DNA from: Acidimicrobiia bacterium
GTDB taxonomy: Bacteria > Actinomycetota > Acidimicrobiia > IMCC26256 > PALSA-555
NCBI GenBank assembly: GCA_009694295.1
Contig: SHVJ01000003.1
Coordinates: forward strand, 1-54,674
Reading direction: 5' to 3'
Length of the DNA: 54,674 nt
Shown in pieces: positions 22,598-28,079 of the stretch. Every line of letters begins with the position of its first letter. Positions within the stretch are counted from its first letter, which is position 1. A model generated the notes under the pieces. It made no database searches and was not told the DNA's origin. It saw only the letters and a list, made by a program, of their open reading frames with translations. The translations under genes were made by a program, and so were the position numbers.

Positions 22598-23231
22598 ATT
22601 CGTAATCCCTATATGCCGTGTACACAAGGTCGACCGCCGACGCGATCGAGAAGGCGACCGCGGTCCAGAGCGCTACATCATGCACGCCCGGGTCGTCGGC
22701 CGTCGGAGGGAAGAGGACGAGGCCGACGGCGAGGAACTGGATGTTGACCTTCCACTTGCCGAGCCAACGCGCCGGGAACGACACACCGCGCCGCCCCTCC
22801 ACGATCCGGAACACGGAGATGAAGATCTCGCGGGCCGCCACGATGCCCACTGGGATCCATCCGAACTTCTCGTTGATCGCGAGCGCGATGAAGCCGCCGA
22901 GCACGAGCACCTTGTCGGCCAGCGGGTCGAGGAACGCACCCGAGCGCGTGGTGCCGTCTCGCCGAGCGAGCCAGCCGTCGAGCCAATCGGTGACCCAGAG
23001 CATCAGCCAACCCGTGAACGTGCCCCACGTGGAATGGCCCTCTTGGAGGACCCACACGAGCACCGGGATGCTGAACACCAGGCGCAGGAACGTGACGGCG
23101 TTAGCCGGCGTCCTGATCGCCGTCTCGCTGAACTTGCGAACGCGCTCGCTCGTGACCTCCACCAGCTCACTTGTGGCCGCGGCCAGCTCACTTGCGAGCT
23201 CTCCGCGCTCACGCCGGTCGCCGCGACTCAC
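22587..23231 (-). CDS. pgsA: Phosphatidylglycerophosphate synthase
   Basis: PANAVTFLR, TDWLDGWLARR...GAFLDPLADK; rimO-pgsA-cinA context. Start uncertain. Confidence 0.9.
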   Translation of the reverse strand: MSRGDRRERGELASELAAATSELVEVTSERVRKFSETAIRTPANAVTFLRLVFSIPVLVWVLQEGHSTWGTFTGWLMLWVTDWLDGWLARRDGTTRSGAFLDPLADKVLVLGGFIALAINEKFGWIPVGIVAAREIFISVFRIVEGRRGVSFPARWLGKWKVNIQFLAVGLVLFPPTADDPGVHDVALWTAVAFSIASAVDLVYTAYRDYEYAS

Positions 23232-24625
23232 GGCTTGACCTCGACTGTCTTGGTGGCACTCGCTGGCTTGTCGTGCCCCCCGGTAGCGCCGTCAACCGCT
23301 CCCCAATCCAACGGTTCGGCGACCAGATCGACGCCGAGCGCCTCGGTGACCTTGGCCCGCACCATCAACCCCGGACGTGCGGTGGCGCCGTCGAGTCGAA
23401 CGATGCCGTCGATCTCGGGCGCTTCGCGATGCGTGCGGCCGATCGGGTCGCCGGTGTCCTCGTCGATCCCGTCGACGAGCACCTCGACCTCGGTGCCGGC
23501 GCGCACGAGCGCGTCGCGCGCCGCTTCGGTGATCGGCGACTGCACCTCGTCGCATTCACGCAGCCACTCGGCGACGACGGGTGCCGGCGGCGCGCCGTCC
23601 ATCGTGGCTGCGGGTGTACCCACTTCCGCGGAGTATGGGAAGAAGCCGGCCCAGTCGAGGCTTGCATCGGCGAGGAAGCCGAGCAGCGTGTCGTGCTCGG
23701 CTTCGCGCTCGCCGGGGAACCCGACGATGAACGAGGAGCGGAAGGTGGCGTCGGGTTCCTGCGCGCGGATGCCCCCGATCATCGAGAGGAACCGGTCGCC
23801 GCTCCCCCAGCGCTTCATGCCCTTGAGGAGGGCGCGGTCGGCGTGCTGGAGCGAGAGGTCGAAGTAGGGCACGACGGTGGACAACTCGAGCATCGTGGAC
23901 ACGAGCGGGTCGCGCACTTCGCTCGGGTACAGATAGAGGAGACGGATGCGGCGCAGGCCGAGCGGCCCGAGCTCGGCATCGAGCCGCCGGAGCAGCGGCG
24001 CGAGCGCGCCGGGTTCGCCGGCGTCGCGCCCGTACCAGGCGAGGTCTTGCGCTACGAGCACCAGCTCGGCAACCCCGCCCTCCACGAGCGACCGGGACTC
24101 GGCCACGAGCGAGTCGGGCGTGCGCGACCGCTGCTTGCCCCGGAACGACGGGATGGCGCAGAAGGTGCAGGCGCGGTCGCACCCCTCCGCGACCTTCACG
24201 TACGCCCAGGGCGCGCTCGGAGCGGCGCGGGGCAGCTCGTGCAGGTCGCGCACGCCGATCGGCTTGCGCCGCGGTGAGTCGAGCAACACGGAACCCAGGT
24301 CGCCTTCGCCCGCGAATCCGATGACCGCGTCCGCTTCGGGGATCGCGGCGGCAAGCTCCGCGCCCTCGCGCTCGGCGAGGCAGCCCGTGACCACGAGCTT
24401 GGCGCCCGGTCGGCGCGCCTCGGCGAGCGCGAGGATCGTCTCCACCGACTCACGCCGCGCAGACTCCACGAAGGCGCACGTGTTCACAACGACGAGATCG
24501 GCGTGCTCGGGTGCGCTGGCCGGCACGAGCCCGTCATCGAGCAGCGAGGCGCGCGCCTTGTCGGAGTCGACGGCGTTCTTCGGGCAGCCGAGCGTCTCGA
24601 TCCAAAAGCTCGGCGCCGCGGTCAT
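23228..24625 (-). CDS. rimO: Ribosomal protein S12 methylthiotransferase
   Basis: TLGCPKNAVDS, NTCAFVE, AYVKVAEGCDRACTFCAIPSFRG, RLLYLYP, APEIDG. Confidence 0.96.
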   Translation of the reverse strand: MTAAPSFWIETLGCPKNAVDSDKARASLLDDGLVPASAPEHADLVVVNTCAFVESARRESVETILALAEARRPGAKLVVTGCLAEREGAELAAAIPEADAVIGFAGEGDLGSVLLDSPRRKPIGVRDLHELPRAAPSAPWAYVKVAEGCDRACTFCAIPSFRGKQRSRTPDSLVAESRSLVEGGVAELVLVAQDLAWYGRDAGEPGALAPLLRRLDAELGPLGLRRIRLLYLYPSEVRDPLVSTMLELSTVVPYFDLSLQHADRALLKGMKRWGSGDRFLSMIGGIRAQEPDATFRSSFIVGFPGEREAEHDTLLGFLADASLDWAGFFPYSAEVGTPAATMDGAPPAPVVAEWLRECDEVQSPITEAARDALVRAGTEVEVLVDGIDEDTGDPIGRTHREAPEIDGIVRLDGATARPGLMVRAKVTEALGVDLVAEPLDWGAVDGATGGHDKPASATKTVEVKP

Positions 24626-24759
24626 CCGGACGATGCTACCGGGCGGTCTTCCGTGCTCTCCCAGCGCCGACGCGGGCCGATGAGTCGCTGTCGCCGTGTC
24701 TGATGTCCCGGCACCCACCAAGTGGTGGACGCGCTACCCCGACGTTCCCAGTCAGGCCA

Positions 24760-25290
24760 CTAGTTCTGGTCGCCGTGGGCCACGTCGCCGTGCCCACTGT
24801 CGGCGTGGTCGTTGTGGGCCGCGGTGTCGACGTGGGCGGCGTCGCCGTGCGCGACGTCGATGTGGCCGCCTGGGATGTCAAAGTGGAACGGGGGCGAACC
24901 GGTGTCTAAATGGCCGAAGTTGTTCACGTCGACGTGCGCAGTGTTGACCAGCGGGGTGTCGAAGTGAGGGATGTCGTTCGTCGTGTCAAGGTGTGCGGTA
25001 TCGACGTGCGCGGTGTCGTTGTGCGGCGCGTCGTTGTGCGGCGCGTCGTCGTGCGCGGCGGTGGTGGTCGTCGTGCCACTCGGATTCGCGGCGTCGGTGT
25101 GATCGGCGTGCGAGGCGTCCGTGTGGGCGCCGCCGCACGCGGCGAGGAGGCCACCAAAGCCGAGTGCGACCGGGAGCGTCGCTCCGGCCTGGAGCAGCTC
25201 CCGCCGAGAGAACTGGCGCCGACGGGCGGCGTGCTCCTCGTCCTCGGACGGCAAGGTCGCGTCGTCGTCGTCGCGAGCGTCAGGACTCAT
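24760..25290 (-). CDS. Tat-signal lipoprotein with 19 His-x-Asp repeats; putative substrate of the adjacent rSAM enzyme and methyltransferase
   Basis: ATG at 25290 with GGGGGAG upstream; acidic N-terminus, FSRRELL, hydrophobic stretch, LAAC lipobox, then HTD/HAD/HND/HVD/HLD/HFD/HID/HGD repeats; 176 aa. Confidence 0.85.
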   Translation of the reverse strand: MSPDARDDDDATLPSEDEEHAARRRQFSRRELLQAGATLPVALGFGGLLAACGGAHTDASHADHTDAANPSGTTTTTAAHDDAPHNDAPHNDTAHVDTAHLDTTNDIPHFDTPLVNTAHVDVNNFGHLDTGSPPFHFDIPGGHIDVAHGDAAHVDTAAHNDHADSGHGDVAHGDQN

Positions 25291-26842
25291 CGCCGTCTCC
25301 CCCCAGGAATGTGTCCGGGACTGTAGCGAGCGCGGCCGGCTCGTGCTGGGAGCCGGCCACCGAGAGGCCGGCCTCGCGGGCGAGGGCCTGGAGGCCGCCG
25401 GCCCGGTCGAGCCAGTCGCCGTATGCGTAGACGAGGACCCGGTCGCAGTGGTCCCGCAGCCGCGCACGGAGCGCGGCGGCCCGGTCGGGGCCGATCTCCA
25501 GCAAACGGCCTGGCATGACGAGGGCGAGGGCGAAGCGCCCCGGGTCCGACCACAGATCGTGGTCGGCGAAGAGGTCGCCCACCACGAAGTGCTCGGCGGT
25601 GTCGGGGTGCAGGGCCCGGGCGTGCTCGATGCGGGCGTGCTCGAGGTCGATCCCGAAGGGAACGACGCCCGGCGCGGCCGCCGTGAGCTTCTCGAGGAGG
25701 GCGCCGTTGCCGCAGCCGAGGTCGAGCACGTTGCCGCCCCGGCGCCCGAGCGCGGCCGCGGCCGCCTCGACGACCGGGCGGTGCGCATCGTTCATGGCGG
25801 CGATCGACGGGAACCCGTTGTCGGTCGCGTACCACGCGGCTCGGGCGCGGCCCTGCGGCTCGGCCGCGTGCTCGAGACCCCGCCGGAACCCGCGGCTGGC
25901 GCTGAGACGCAGCTTCACCGGCACCCGGAACGGCGGGCCCAGGCCGTGTGCGCCCTCGGCCGGGAACCCGGTGCCCTCGCGCCGCACCACATAGCGTCCT
26001 GCGGTCGCGTCGGTACGGGTCGACACCTTGAGCACGGGCGTCTTCACCTCGGCGATGCCGTGCAGCGCTGACCACTCCACCGGCCAAGAGAGGACCTCGA
26101 GGAGCCAGTCCATCTCCTCGCCGAAGCCGGCGTCGCGCCCGACCCTCACGAGCGCGTCGGCGAACTCGACGGTCGGCGGGCAGTCGAAGCGGCACGGGAG
26201 GTGCGGGACAGCTCGCGCGCCCATCCAGCGCCAGAGGATGTTCGCCTGCGGCGGGCCCGCGACCTCGATGGTCGTGGTCCCGTCGAGCGAATCGGTGCTG
26301 GCCACCGCCATGGGCCACGTGGTGTCGACCATCGCGTCGTCGACCCACACCCGGCGGAAGAATTCGCGACAGCAGGCCGGGTAGCCGAGCAGGTCGCCGA
26401 TCGTCTCGTCGTCGCCGGCCTCCCACGCGCGCTTGAACGTCGCCACGTCGTCGATCGCACCCACGACGAAGCGGAACACGAACGGTTGGCCCGGCTCGGC
26501 CGAGACGGGTGTGGCCGAGTACGGCTGCCCCGAGACGCCCATCATCTCGATTGGCATCGCGCTGAGGCCGACGTCGGCCCAACGCGTTGCCTCGGTGAGG
26601 AACTCCTCGGGCGACGTGGTCGCGATCGCACAGCGCCGGACGCCGGCCGCCACCGCGCGCCACTCGATCTCGAGCCACGCCGCGGTGATGCGGGTCAGCC
26701 GGGGTTGCCACGCGTCGCGGGCCGCGTCGCTGACCCATGCCACCCGGGTGAAGTCGGGGAGCCGGAAGTCGAGCTGCTCCATCGAGCGGGTCGCCGCCGG
26801 CGCGGTGTTGGGACCGGGCGGCGCGAGCTGGAGGTCAGGCAT
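25280..26842 (-). CDS. Fusion of a Cys-motif N-terminal domain and a C-terminal class I SAM-dependent methyltransferase
   Basis: N-terminal LLGYPACC and HLPCRFDC motifs; C-terminal NVLDLGCGNG, FGIDLE, VVGDLF. Overlaps both neighbouring genes. Confidence 0.85.
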   Translation of the reverse strand: MPDLQLAPPGPNTAPAATRSMEQLDFRLPDFTRVAWVSDAARDAWQPRLTRITAAWLEIEWRAVAAGVRRCAIATTSPEEFLTEATRWADVGLSAMPIEMMGVSGQPYSATPVSAEPGQPFVFRFVVGAIDDVATFKRAWEAGDDETIGDLLGYPACCREFFRRVWVDDAMVDTTWPMAVASTDSLDGTTTIEVAGPPQANILWRWMGARAVPHLPCRFDCPPTVEFADALVRVGRDAGFGEEMDWLLEVLSWPVEWSALHGIAEVKTPVLKVSTRTDATAGRYVVRREGTGFPAEGAHGLGPPFRVPVKLRLSASRGFRRGLEHAAEPQGRARAAWYATDNGFPSIAAMNDAHRPVVEAAAAALGRRGGNVLDLGCGNGALLEKLTAAAPGVVPFGIDLEHARIEHARALHPDTAEHFVVGDLFADHDLWSDPGRFALALVMPGRLLEIGPDRAAALRARLRDHCDRVLVYAYGDWLDRAGGLQALAREAGLSVAGSQHEPAALATVPDTFLGGDGDES

Positions 26843-28079
26843 CGCCGTGCGGGACGTCGCCGTGCGGCGCGTCGCCGTGCTCCACGTCACCGAGCGGCGC
26901 GCCGACGGCCGTCGACTCGTGCTGCTCGGCCATCCAGCGCTTGACGCCGGCGATCGAGGTCGTCTGACCCGCCGCCCAGAGCTCGAGGAAGGCCGCTTCT
27001 ACGTCGGCGCGCTCGGGGCTCGCGGAGAGCGGGACCTCGCCGGCGTCGAGAAGTTGCTCCTCCAGGCCGCGAAAGAGACCCTTCCAGAGGTCGCAGTGCT
27101 CGGTGCGGTTGCGCCAATCACCGTCGATCGCGGTGCCGGGGCACTGGCCCTTGCACATGAGAAAGAAGCGGCACCCCGAGCACCCGCCGTGCTCCTGGGG
27201 CGTGGCGTAGAGGGCGAGGTAGCGCTCGAAGCCCTCGACCGGCGCCTTCACGAAGTCGATGCCGTCCTTGTTGGTGCGCCCGCAGTTGCTGGCCTGGCCG
27301 TAGCCCTCCACCCCGCGCACGGCGCGGGTCGTGTACGGGTCGCACGCATTCCACACGCACGTGGTTTGGTCGTCGGTGCCGCGTAGGAGGTTGCGCATGT
27401 CGTCGAACACGTCGAGGCGCAGCGTGGTGAGGTCGGCTTCGAGTCTCGCGAAGCTTGTGAACGCGGCCATGTTCTCTTCGGGAGTGAGCGCGTAGGCGGC
27501 GCCGACGTCGTCGCTCTCAACTTCGAGGGCATGGAGGCGTGCGTTCCTGATGCCCATCGCCTGCAGGCGCCGCAACCAGTCGTGCATCGTCGGCAGTGCC
27601 GCACCGGTGGCGTTGCCGCGGTGCAGCGTGATGATGAGGCTCGGCGGGGTACCTTCGCCGCAGAGTCGCTCGATCGCGGCTTCCGCCTTGGCCGTCGCCT
27701 CACGGGTGCGCTCGAGCGTGCCGGCCCAGCGCGCGTCGTTCAACTCGCCGGGGCCGTCGATCGAGATGCCGACATCGACCTTGTACTGGCGGAACATGCG
27801 GGCGTGCGCGTCGTTGATGAGCACGCCGTTGGTCTGAATGCTGTTCGACCCGTACCGCTCGAGGCCCCAGGCCAACAGGTCCTCAAGGTCGGCCTCCGGC
27901 ACCAACAGCGCCTCGCCACCGAAGAGCGTGAACGGGCCGCCCTCGCGCTCGACCGCGGCCTTCATCGCGTCGAGGTCGTAGGAACGCGGGACGTTGCCCG
28001 CGTCGCGTTGGGGGTTCTGGTAGCAGTACTGGCACTGGATGTTGCACGCGACACCCAGCGGCCGGAGCTCGACGCTCAC
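26835..28079 (-). CDS. Radical SAM/SPASM-domain protein with C-terminal HGD repeats
   Basis: CNIQCQYC, FGGEALL, IQTNG, ISIDGP; SPASM cysteines CVWNAC, NC, CSGC-x5-C-x3-C-x15-C; tail EHGDAPHGDVPHGDA. Confidence 0.93.
   Translation of the reverse strand: MSVELRPLGVACNIQCQYCYQNPQRDAGNVPRSYDLDAMKAAVEREGGPFTLFGGEALLVPEADLEDLLAWGLERYGSNSIQTNGVLINDAHARMFRQYKVDVGISIDGPGELNDARWAGTLERTREATAKAEAAIERLCGEGTPPSLIITLHRGNATGAALPTMHDWLRRLQAMGIRNARLHALEVESDDVGAAYALTPEENMAAFTSFARLEADLTTLRLDVFDDMRNLLRGTDDQTTCVWNACDPYTTRAVRGVEGYGQASNCGRTNKDGIDFVKAPVEGFERYLALYATPQEHGGCSGCRFFLMCKGQCPGTAIDGDWRNRTEHCDLWKGLFRGLEEQLLDAGEVPLSASPERADVEAAFLELWAAGQTTSIAGVKRWMAEQHESTAVGAPLGDVEHGDAPHGDVPHGDA

Follow-up and report, generated by a model that had tools for sequence, protein, structure and literature searches.

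In a 54,674-nucleotide (nt) stretch of contig SHVJ01000003.1 from an Acidimicrobiia bacterium (assembly GCA_009694295.1; hereafter the window), a radical S-adenosylmethionine (SAM) enzyme with a SPASM domain ends in a short array of His-Gly-Asp (HGD) units, a form of the His-x-Asp (HxD) motif that also fills the presumed substrate of the enzyme, a repeat protein encoded two genes downstream. A Cys-rich partner protein is encoded between the two. The tail exists, is conserved among relatives of the enzyme, is disordered in the structural model and shares the motif and spacing of the substrate. It may be a tethered pseudo-substrate, or the first substrate, of an HxD-binding cleft in the enzyme that carries it, a tentative reading to which we assign a probability of roughly 0.35.

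Translation of the minus-strand open reading frame (ORF) that ends at 26835 yields the C-terminus ...AVGAPLGDVEHGDAPHGDVPHGDA followed by the stop codon, and so bears out the LGDVE-HGDAP-HGDVP-HGDA ending reported in the first-pass annotation of this DNA; HGD falls at residues 401, 406 and 411 of the 414-residue protein. The interval then given for the tail, 26835 to 26890, starts correctly with the stop codon (26835-26837) and cuts off 4 nt at its other end, as the first, degenerate unit (LGDVE) starts at 26894. Tandem Repeats Finder places a 15-nt array of 3.8 copies with 78% matches at 26842-26898, and finds similar 15-nt arrays within the gene of the repeat protein. In the closest relative, which is 93% identical (L001/P0001), an intact HGDAP unit aligns with LGDVE, which leaves the window with three intact units and a decayed one. 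As a control for chance, the whole assembly (2.1 Mb, 105 contigs, 64.5% complete) was translated in six frames. HGDxxHGD occurs in it twice, in the tail and at the C-terminus of the repeat protein, and the assembly has a single HxD-dense ORF. Other sequence data agree: the tail is covered in full, with neither mismatch nor gap, by a 241-nt contig from another study's run (X5, 26744-26984) and by one of 159 nt from a different sample (X3, 26796-26954), and in X2 two contigs end within the repeat, yet match exactly. The tail is neither a chance occurrence, nor an assembly error, nor a private relic.

The protein that bears the tail is a radical SAM/SPASM enzyme by its core motif and its eight-cysteine region. 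CxxxCxxC (C12/C16/C19) is nearly invariant in 93 sequences, the SPASM cysteines C241, C246, C266, C300, C303, C309, C313 and C329 are invariant in the alignment, and Pfam PF04055 is matched with E 6e-11 (43.2 bits vs a cut-off of 29.5). No curated NCBIfam family was reached, the best scores being those of AmcB (63.9 vs 425) and anSME (TIGR03942, 61.8 vs 349.45); the 3-CyFE family models also stayed below their cut-offs (YhhB 51.6 vs 445, GrrM/OscB 46.4 vs 310, XyeB 34.2 vs 450, FxsB 31.8 vs 370). Among solved structures, anSME 4k36 is the best match by sequence profile (E 4e-16), and in a fold comparison of the AlphaFold2 model of the whole enzyme (predicted local distance difference test, pLDDT, 83.8) the nearest folds are anSME (4k36-39, E about 1e-10) and the triceptide synthase ChlB (9gm3), SPASM enzymes that modify peptides. 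The protein starts right at CxxxCxxC, with C12, which leaves no space for an N-terminal leader-binding domain; the enzyme must therefore recognise the HxD unit itself. In the same model the last helix covers residues 376-392 and the tail residues 391-414 have pLDDT values of 61/52/46, which predicts a disordered, flexible appendage on a short linker.

Tails of this kind are widespread among homologues, and the concern voiced in the first-pass annotation, that the tail might prove absent from them, can be set aside. They were scored as two or more HxD units beyond the SPASM domain, in a cellular sample of 198 enzyme cores (the window, 77 related loci and the 120 best protein matches) that is biased towards relatives of the query and leaves out L019, L074 and L080, whose genes are frameshifted or truncated. 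The tail is present in 93 of these cores and absent from 79, and the other 26 are fused to the N-terminal domain of the partner. A single clade of 145 rows (92 with a tail, 46 without, seven fused) holds every tail-bearing row but one. The tree demands at least 23 changes of tail state, at least 13 of them forced by well-supported branches, a distribution that points to an old tail lost repeatedly. Among viral enzymes, 57 of the 74 that could be evaluated have the tail, 17 lack it and none is fused. Comparison of the cores revealed no residue that tracks tail presence beyond conservative, lineage-like differences. The retention of the tail in so many bacterial and phage relatives argues that it is functional.

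The form of the tail is also conserved. In the Actinomycetota-like group it follows the pattern (HGD-x-P)n-HGD-A/G, with two to six copies, and in other lineages HGD(x)HGDHTD, often short of the very end of the protein; HGDHxD appears in 32 of 48 distinct viral tails. Codons for the same residues vary (His CAC 45 and CAT 12; Asp GAC 38 and GAT 19; Gly GGC 32, GGT 5, GGA 4 and GGG 4), and this synonymous variation indicates selection at the level of the protein. The one fixed codon is that of the last Asp where it supplies the ATG of the partner gene: it is GAT in 9/9 sequences (the window and eight loci) whose tail ends in HGD[A/G] before the stop, and inner Asp codons are mostly GAC. Two variants deserve mention. 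Eight enzymes (P0170, P0183-P0188 and P0190) are interrupted by inteins (Pfam PF14528, LAGLIDADG; the radical SAM match falls into two to four pieces) and keep tails of the HGDHTD/HGDHND type. A well-supported subclade of nine members inside the tail-bearing group (P0050, P0055, P0058, P0071, P0088, P0098, P0101, P0103 and P0119) ends in ...(A/V)(V/I)GDSD, with no histidine, which may be a His-less derivative of the tail.

The tail and its cognate repeat protein share motif and period, as had been claimed from the window, where both HGDVAHGD and APHNDAPHND are found in the repeat protein. A spacing of five residues accounts for 29 of 40 intervals between tail units; in cognate repeat proteins, too, it is the most frequent (170 intervals, followed by spacing 3 with 76). 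The two differ in other respects. Gly takes the middle position in 45 of 57 tail units vs 83 of 444 repeat-protein units, and among the 41 loci with an HGDHxD tail, 28 have no HGDHxD at all in the repeat protein. Strict mimicry was rejected, as an identical HxDHxD hexamer is common to tail and cognate repeat protein in only 4 of these 41 loci. These comparisons describe the tail as a conserved, minimal version of the motif with constraints of its own, rather than a substrate copy that drifts. Of the 16 cellular loci with a tail, 15 also encode a separate repeat protein, and the remaining one (L072) is a contig of 2,997 bp, so the tail does not replace the substrate. Together with the synonymous codons and the separate consensus, this disfavours the earlier suggestion that the tail is the relic of an enzyme-substrate fusion.

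The three genes belong to a cassette that recurs in more than 12 phyla and many phages, composed of the radical SAM enzyme, a DUF483-like Cys-rich partner with or without a methyltransferase domain, and an HxD-repeat protein. A scan of cellular genomes, one per species, gave 80 loci (81 with the window) whose enzymes are 57-93% identical to that of the window. They come from Actinomycetota, Rokubacteria, Planctomycetota, Chloroflexota, Acidobacteriota, Proteobacteria, Cyanobacteria, Gemmatimonadota, Armatimonadota, Bacteroidota, Myxococcota, Bacillota and one Nitrososphaeraceae archaeon. Of the 80 loci, 78 have the partner next to the enzyme or fused with it; 65 of the 81 contain an HxD-dense ORF, and in 65 of the 81 all three components occur together, across many phyla. 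Viral contigs contributed 76 further loci, with core identities of 38-59%. No fourth gene recurs across the 80 loci, and neither metal-handling nor sulfatase genes do. The functional linkage of the genes, first proposed from the shared motif, is well supported, more by this synteny (65 of 81 loci, and overlaps in the window of 8 nt between enzyme and partner and 11 nt between partner and repeat protein) than by the motif. The accessory domain varies by lineage, being a methyltransferase, an aKG-HExxH peptide beta-hydroxylase (TIGR04267, 78.6 bits vs 40), a dioxygenase-like domain or DUF364, and this variety fits a protein-modification system. Searches of defence-system libraries (PADLOC) returned generic viperin and methyltransferase matches only.

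In the reading that we prefer, the radical SAM/SPASM enzyme and its DUF483-like/methyltransferase partner would modify the HxD units of a repeat lipoprotein in the cytoplasm, before its export by the twin-arginine translocation (Tat) pathway. The chemistry, by analogy with triceptide synthases, would most likely be a cross-link from His to the C-beta of Asp on each three-residue unit, which is the most economical guess for an HxD array. The C-terminus, on a flexible linker of 10-20 residues, would present its two to six minimal HGD units to the enzyme's own cleft. We infer that the tail occupies this cleft when the repeat protein is missing, where it could act as a gate, curbing uncoupled SAM cleavage or holding the site in its formed state; the tail, too, would probably be cross-linked, and would give way to the real substrate, which is highly multivalent. 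The conservation of the consensus (HGD, HGDHTD) across cores as divergent as those described above, cellular and viral, fits a ligand bound by a conserved site better than it fits a copied variable substrate. Several observations weigh against this scheme. The repeated losses indicate that the tail is not essential, and its absence from every fused radical SAM-partner protein is not predicted by a pseudo-substrate role. The bias towards Gly sets the tail apart from a plain substrate copy, and a single unit would suffice for a pseudo-substrate, yet two to six are kept. Lastly, AlphaFold2 docks the tail nowhere on the whole enzyme (pLDDT 46-61), a result that does not exclude binding.

Among other explanations, the one that survives best is that the tail binds metal, although we consider it doubtful. 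Its His/Asp/Gly repeats would chelate a divalent metal (Zn, Ni, Cu, Fe or Mn), as those of the repeat lipoprotein probably do, and so buffer, deliver or sense the ion, or load the product before Tat export. The composition of the tail suits such a role, being limited to His, Asp, Gly and small residues, in two to six copies at a disordered C-terminus, as does the substrate, an acidic His/Asp array with a Tat signal; Tat is an export route for proteins folded or loaded in the cytoplasm. His-rich C-terminal tails have a precedent in metallochaperones, and the conservation of HGDHxD in tails whose repeat protein lacks it would suit an intrinsic chemical role. However, metal binding leaves tail loss in every partner fusion unexplained, and no metal-handling gene is conserved in the loci. 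Viral systems whose dense H-x-D/N ORFs are not Tat-exported have the same tails, so the export-loading version is not general. In addition, both auxiliary clusters can draw all their ligands from the eight SPASM cysteines, with no obvious need for extra ones. The narrower proposal that the tail is a ligand of an open iron site on an auxiliary cluster was set aside because all eight cysteines are invariant.

The tail could also be a product of the enzyme's chemistry. If the enzyme cross-links its own HGD units, it would be a self-modifying radical SAM maturase, and the modified tail might serve as a built-in ligand (for metal or for the partner) or as a gate. We regard this as unlikely, and hold the same opinion of a tether to the partner, which would itself have to bind HxD units: the HGD tail would sit in that site and hold the two enzymes together non-covalently, fusion making it redundant. 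The tether, which is not among the roles listed in the first-pass annotation, is suggested by the absence of tails from all fused forms and explains their loss in fusions best. No fused protein has two or more HxD units in the linker (0/26 in the first sample, 0/63 among longer proteins with a partner domain), vs 93 of 172 unfused enzymes with a tail. In the fused proteins P0121-P0124, which share 76-80% identity with the window enzyme and are the sister group of a tail-bearing row, the linker contains no HxD unit, and the fusion P0160 retains a single APHGDAP, a possible relic of the tail. Unfused enzymes with inteins keep their tails, the last tail codons overlap the partner's start codon, and the partner has a methyltransferase domain in all 14 tail-bearing cellular loci that could be evaluated. 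However, only 2-3 of 27 fused-only clades have tail-bearing sisters, and the association between tail and fusion is not significant in an independent-pairs sign test (p 0.25-1). Many unfused enzymes, moreover, stand beside their partner with no tail, so the tail is not needed for the partnership.

A docking element, by which the tail would pair with the HxD array of the repeat protein (for example through shared metal ions) and recruit a leaderless substrate, is improbable. It would account for C-terminal extensions that vary with the type of substrate, such as the basic helix of L014, L025, L053 and L054, and for the company that tails keep in cellular loci, where they occur mostly with Tat-type repeat proteins, vs 0/20 for fused-enzyme loci in the same biased sample (Fisher p ~6e-4 for tail vs Tat-type substrate, counts 9, 7, 5, 41, under a strict Tat filter by which some genuine signals are missed). 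As a general rule this association was rejected: it rests on at most five independent pairs and is broken by phage systems, whose enzymes are also tailed, so that export is not the common factor. Furthermore, the tail consensus does not co-vary with the units of the repeat protein, and two like-charged acidic arrays would require bridging ions to pair. Weakest of all, and very improbable, is a neutral by-product, either of a 15-nt array prone to slippage or of an ancient fusion of enzyme and substrate, retained solely through overlap with the next start codon: copy number does range from two to six even in close relatives, the window has a decayed unit, losses are frequent and the final GAT-GCC-TGA is constrained by the overlapping ATG, but that overlap constrains one codon pair and not two to six repeats, tails are also seen at loci without gene overlap and at loci with the motif away from the C-terminus, the middle position shows a strong preference for Gly, and the motif persists through synonymous codon changes in cellular and viral lineages down to ~40% core identity.

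The coordinates of the cassette in the window are as follows.

Features of the HxD cassette, with positions numbered from the first letter of the window
Feature	Position	Strand	Description
Radical SAM/SPASM enzyme, 414 aa	26835..28079	-	GTG start at 28079, preceded by GAGGA; TGA stop at 26835
Tail, LGDVE-HGDAP-HGDVP-HGDA and TGA stop	26835..26894	-	15-nt tandem array; three intact HGD units, one decayed
Gene overlap, ATGCCTGA	26835..26842	-	Partner ATG inside the last Asp-Ala codons and stop of the enzyme
Partner (p2), 520 aa	25280..26842	-	ATG at 26842; N-terminal Cys-rich part of ~330 aa, C-terminal class I SAM methyltransferase
HxD-repeat protein, 176 aa, presumed substrate	24760..25290	-	ATG at 25290; two genes downstream of the enzyme

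The overlap of the enzyme and partner genes suggests translational coupling. The methyltransferase part of the partner matches Pfam PF13489/PF13649, and its N-terminal domain has the invariant residues R33, P155, C157, C158, C217, C221, W257, H261 and G262 (alignment A2); the AlphaFold2 model has a pLDDT of 90.9. A distant likeness of this domain to DUF483 is weakly indicated, by a Pfam match below the cut-off (E 0.0095) and by ESM Atlas clusters, matched at 0.96, of whose members 13-20% carry PF04467. No convincing structural relative emerged: Foldseek against the PDB gave nothing below 1e-3, a PDB sequence search gave nothing significant, and VIA-align gave 2guk as best (Z 9.0 over 104 residues), followed by NleE (Z 5.9). 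The repeat protein has 19 HxD motifs, including ...SGHGDVAHGDQN at the stop and APHNDAPHND, and ends in ...HGDVAHGDQN. By eye it begins with a twin-arginine signal (FSRRELL) and a lipobox (LAAC), and homologous Tat/lipobox repeat proteins occur in related loci. Directly downstream of it, at 23228-24721 on the minus strand, is a gene whose product by eye resembles a methylthiotransferase of the MiaB/RimO type; pgsA- and cinA-like genes come next. The C-beta of an Asp is the target of RimO, but this neighbour is probably ordinary housekeeping synteny.

The make-up of the cassette varies among the related loci. In the fusions P0129-P0135, P0142, P0153, P0158 and P0160-P0164, a third domain stands where the window has the methyltransferase, namely an aKG-HExxH peptide beta-hydroxylase (above cut-off in P0153), a 2OG-Fe(II) oxygenase, PhyH or DUF364. 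In 13 loci (L021, L022, L024, L034, L037, L042, L050, L057, L063, L065, L070, L076 and L078) the HxD array ends frames of ~1000-1650 aa just upstream of the enzyme, lying within 20 residues of the C-terminus. These frames are measured from stop to stop and five of them run off the edge of the locus; the same enzyme family appears also to target the ends of very large proteins. Eight loci (L003, L005, L032, L043, L047, L061, L067 and L080) have two HxD-repeat proteins, one of them in L003 upstream of the enzyme and the other between enzyme and partner, so that substrate order and copy number both vary. In L014, L025, L053 and L054 a basic amphipathic helix of net charge +2 to +7 (such as ...RPWRERMNDLRARVADRT) forms the end of the enzyme in place of HGD repeats, and the HxD proteins of these loci, encoded by upstream ORFs, have a helical C-terminal domain of ~70 aa with a net charge of 0 to -5. 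Helix and domain may form a docking pair, which hints that the C-terminal position of the enzyme is a general adaptor site. L014 is also a complete cassette (enzyme 62% identical, methyltransferase partner, HxD protein) on a 427-kb contig labelled as that of the Nitrososphaeraceae archaeon. Horizontal spread is suggested by the numerous phage copies and by identities that stay very high between phyla and even domains.

Radical SAM enzymes that modify peptides and proteins normally find their target through a leader peptide and a recognition domain. The family found in the window has neither, and combines long arrays of three-residue units as presumed target with, in many members, a short array of the same motif on its own C-terminus. 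The cassette is very widely distributed: its hosts include Actinomycetota of soil and freshwater, cyanobacteria and a thaumarchaeon, and many phages have it as well. Should the tail be self-modified or a pseudo-substrate in cis, the C-terminal peptide of the enzyme could report uncharacterised chemistry by mass spectrometry, and the arrangement would be a new way of regulating or assembling such enzymes. If self-modification in particular holds, substrate-mimic tails could be a general alternative to leader recognition for leaderless repeat proteins in bacteria and phages. Searches of a literature library found no HxD tail, HxD system or substrate-like tail on a radical SAM maturase; none of the papers examined contained an H-x-D motif; and "DUF483" and "radical SAM" occurred together in one work only. 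In print the cassette was found solely as an unexplained phage "rSAM module". A report on the conversion of aspartate to aminomalonate (PMC12186529) was considered and is unrelated.

The phage module comes from the Thermus phages Cumys and phiMa, and comprises a radical SAM protein, a DUF483-domain protein and a third protein (bioRxiv 10.1101/2024.08.14.607894). The part of the preprint consulted also describes fusions of DUF483 with methyltransferase or radical SAM domains and proposes DNA modification (bioRxiv 10.1101/2024.08.14.607894). The gene set appears to be that of the window cassette, in which the DUF483 likeness of the partner is weak; viral relatives of the window enzyme are abundant (76 loci), and HxD repeats or tails do not figure in that part of the text. 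The best solved match by both profile and fold, anSME, resembles the window enzyme in its eight-Cys SPASM region and in having no N-terminal peptide-recognition domain. It differs in its family score, given above, and in its conserved neighbours, with no recurrent sulfatase gene in the loci related to the window. In borosins of the OphMA type, as far as the portion consulted describes them, the C-terminus of the enzyme carries its own substrate sequence and is modified autocatalytically (PMC7878506). The HGD units are likewise substrate-type sequence inside an enzyme polypeptide. However, the borosin tail is the product and needs no separate precursor, whereas the window type has a repeat protein in 15/16 loci, a tail of only two to six minimal units and a different class of enzyme.

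The HXS antiphage system, in the available text, comprises a His-x-Ser repeat protein that is matured in the cytoplasm by radical SAM enzymes and a small partner and exported to the periplasm, with the modification mapped to a His-containing repeat (PMC13128918). It is similar to the window system in that a repeat protein rather than a peptide is modified, and in that the effector is exported. HXS has two radical SAM enzymes (HxsB and HxsC) with HxsD, five basic, DNA-binding HxS repeats and a peptidoglycan-binding domain, and the same text describes no tail on its enzymes (PMC13128918). The window cassette, in contrast, has one radical SAM enzyme, a DUF483-like partner and 19 acidic HxD units.

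Triceptide synthases are radical SAM/SPASM enzymes that, in the portions of the reports consulted, form a bond between the ring of residue 1 and C-beta of residue 3; in the His-first motifs HAA, HTK and HAS this bond runs from His-C2 to the C-beta of residue 3 (PMC11499958; PMC12912966). Like HaaB, HtkB, MicB and ChlB, the window enzyme is a radical SAM/SPASM protein whose target would be repeated, aromatic-first motifs of three residues. A cognate aromatic-X-X substrate is present (19 H-x-D units in the window; HxD-dense ORFs in 65/81 loci), ChlB is among the nearest folds, and AmcB, YhhB, GrrM and XyeB are among the best NCBIfam matches. In contrast to the triceptide synthases, the window enzyme scores far below every family cut-off (63.9 vs 425 at best), its presumed substrate is an exported lipoprotein of 176 aa (some relatives have instead the C-terminal end of an ORF of more than 1000 aa) rather than a short leader-core peptide, and its cassette has an obligatory DUF483-like partner. 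To our knowledge, no triceptide synthase has been reported to have a substrate-like tail. Overall, the window system, although assigned by tests of membership to neither, is in its logic closest to triceptide maturation and to HXS.

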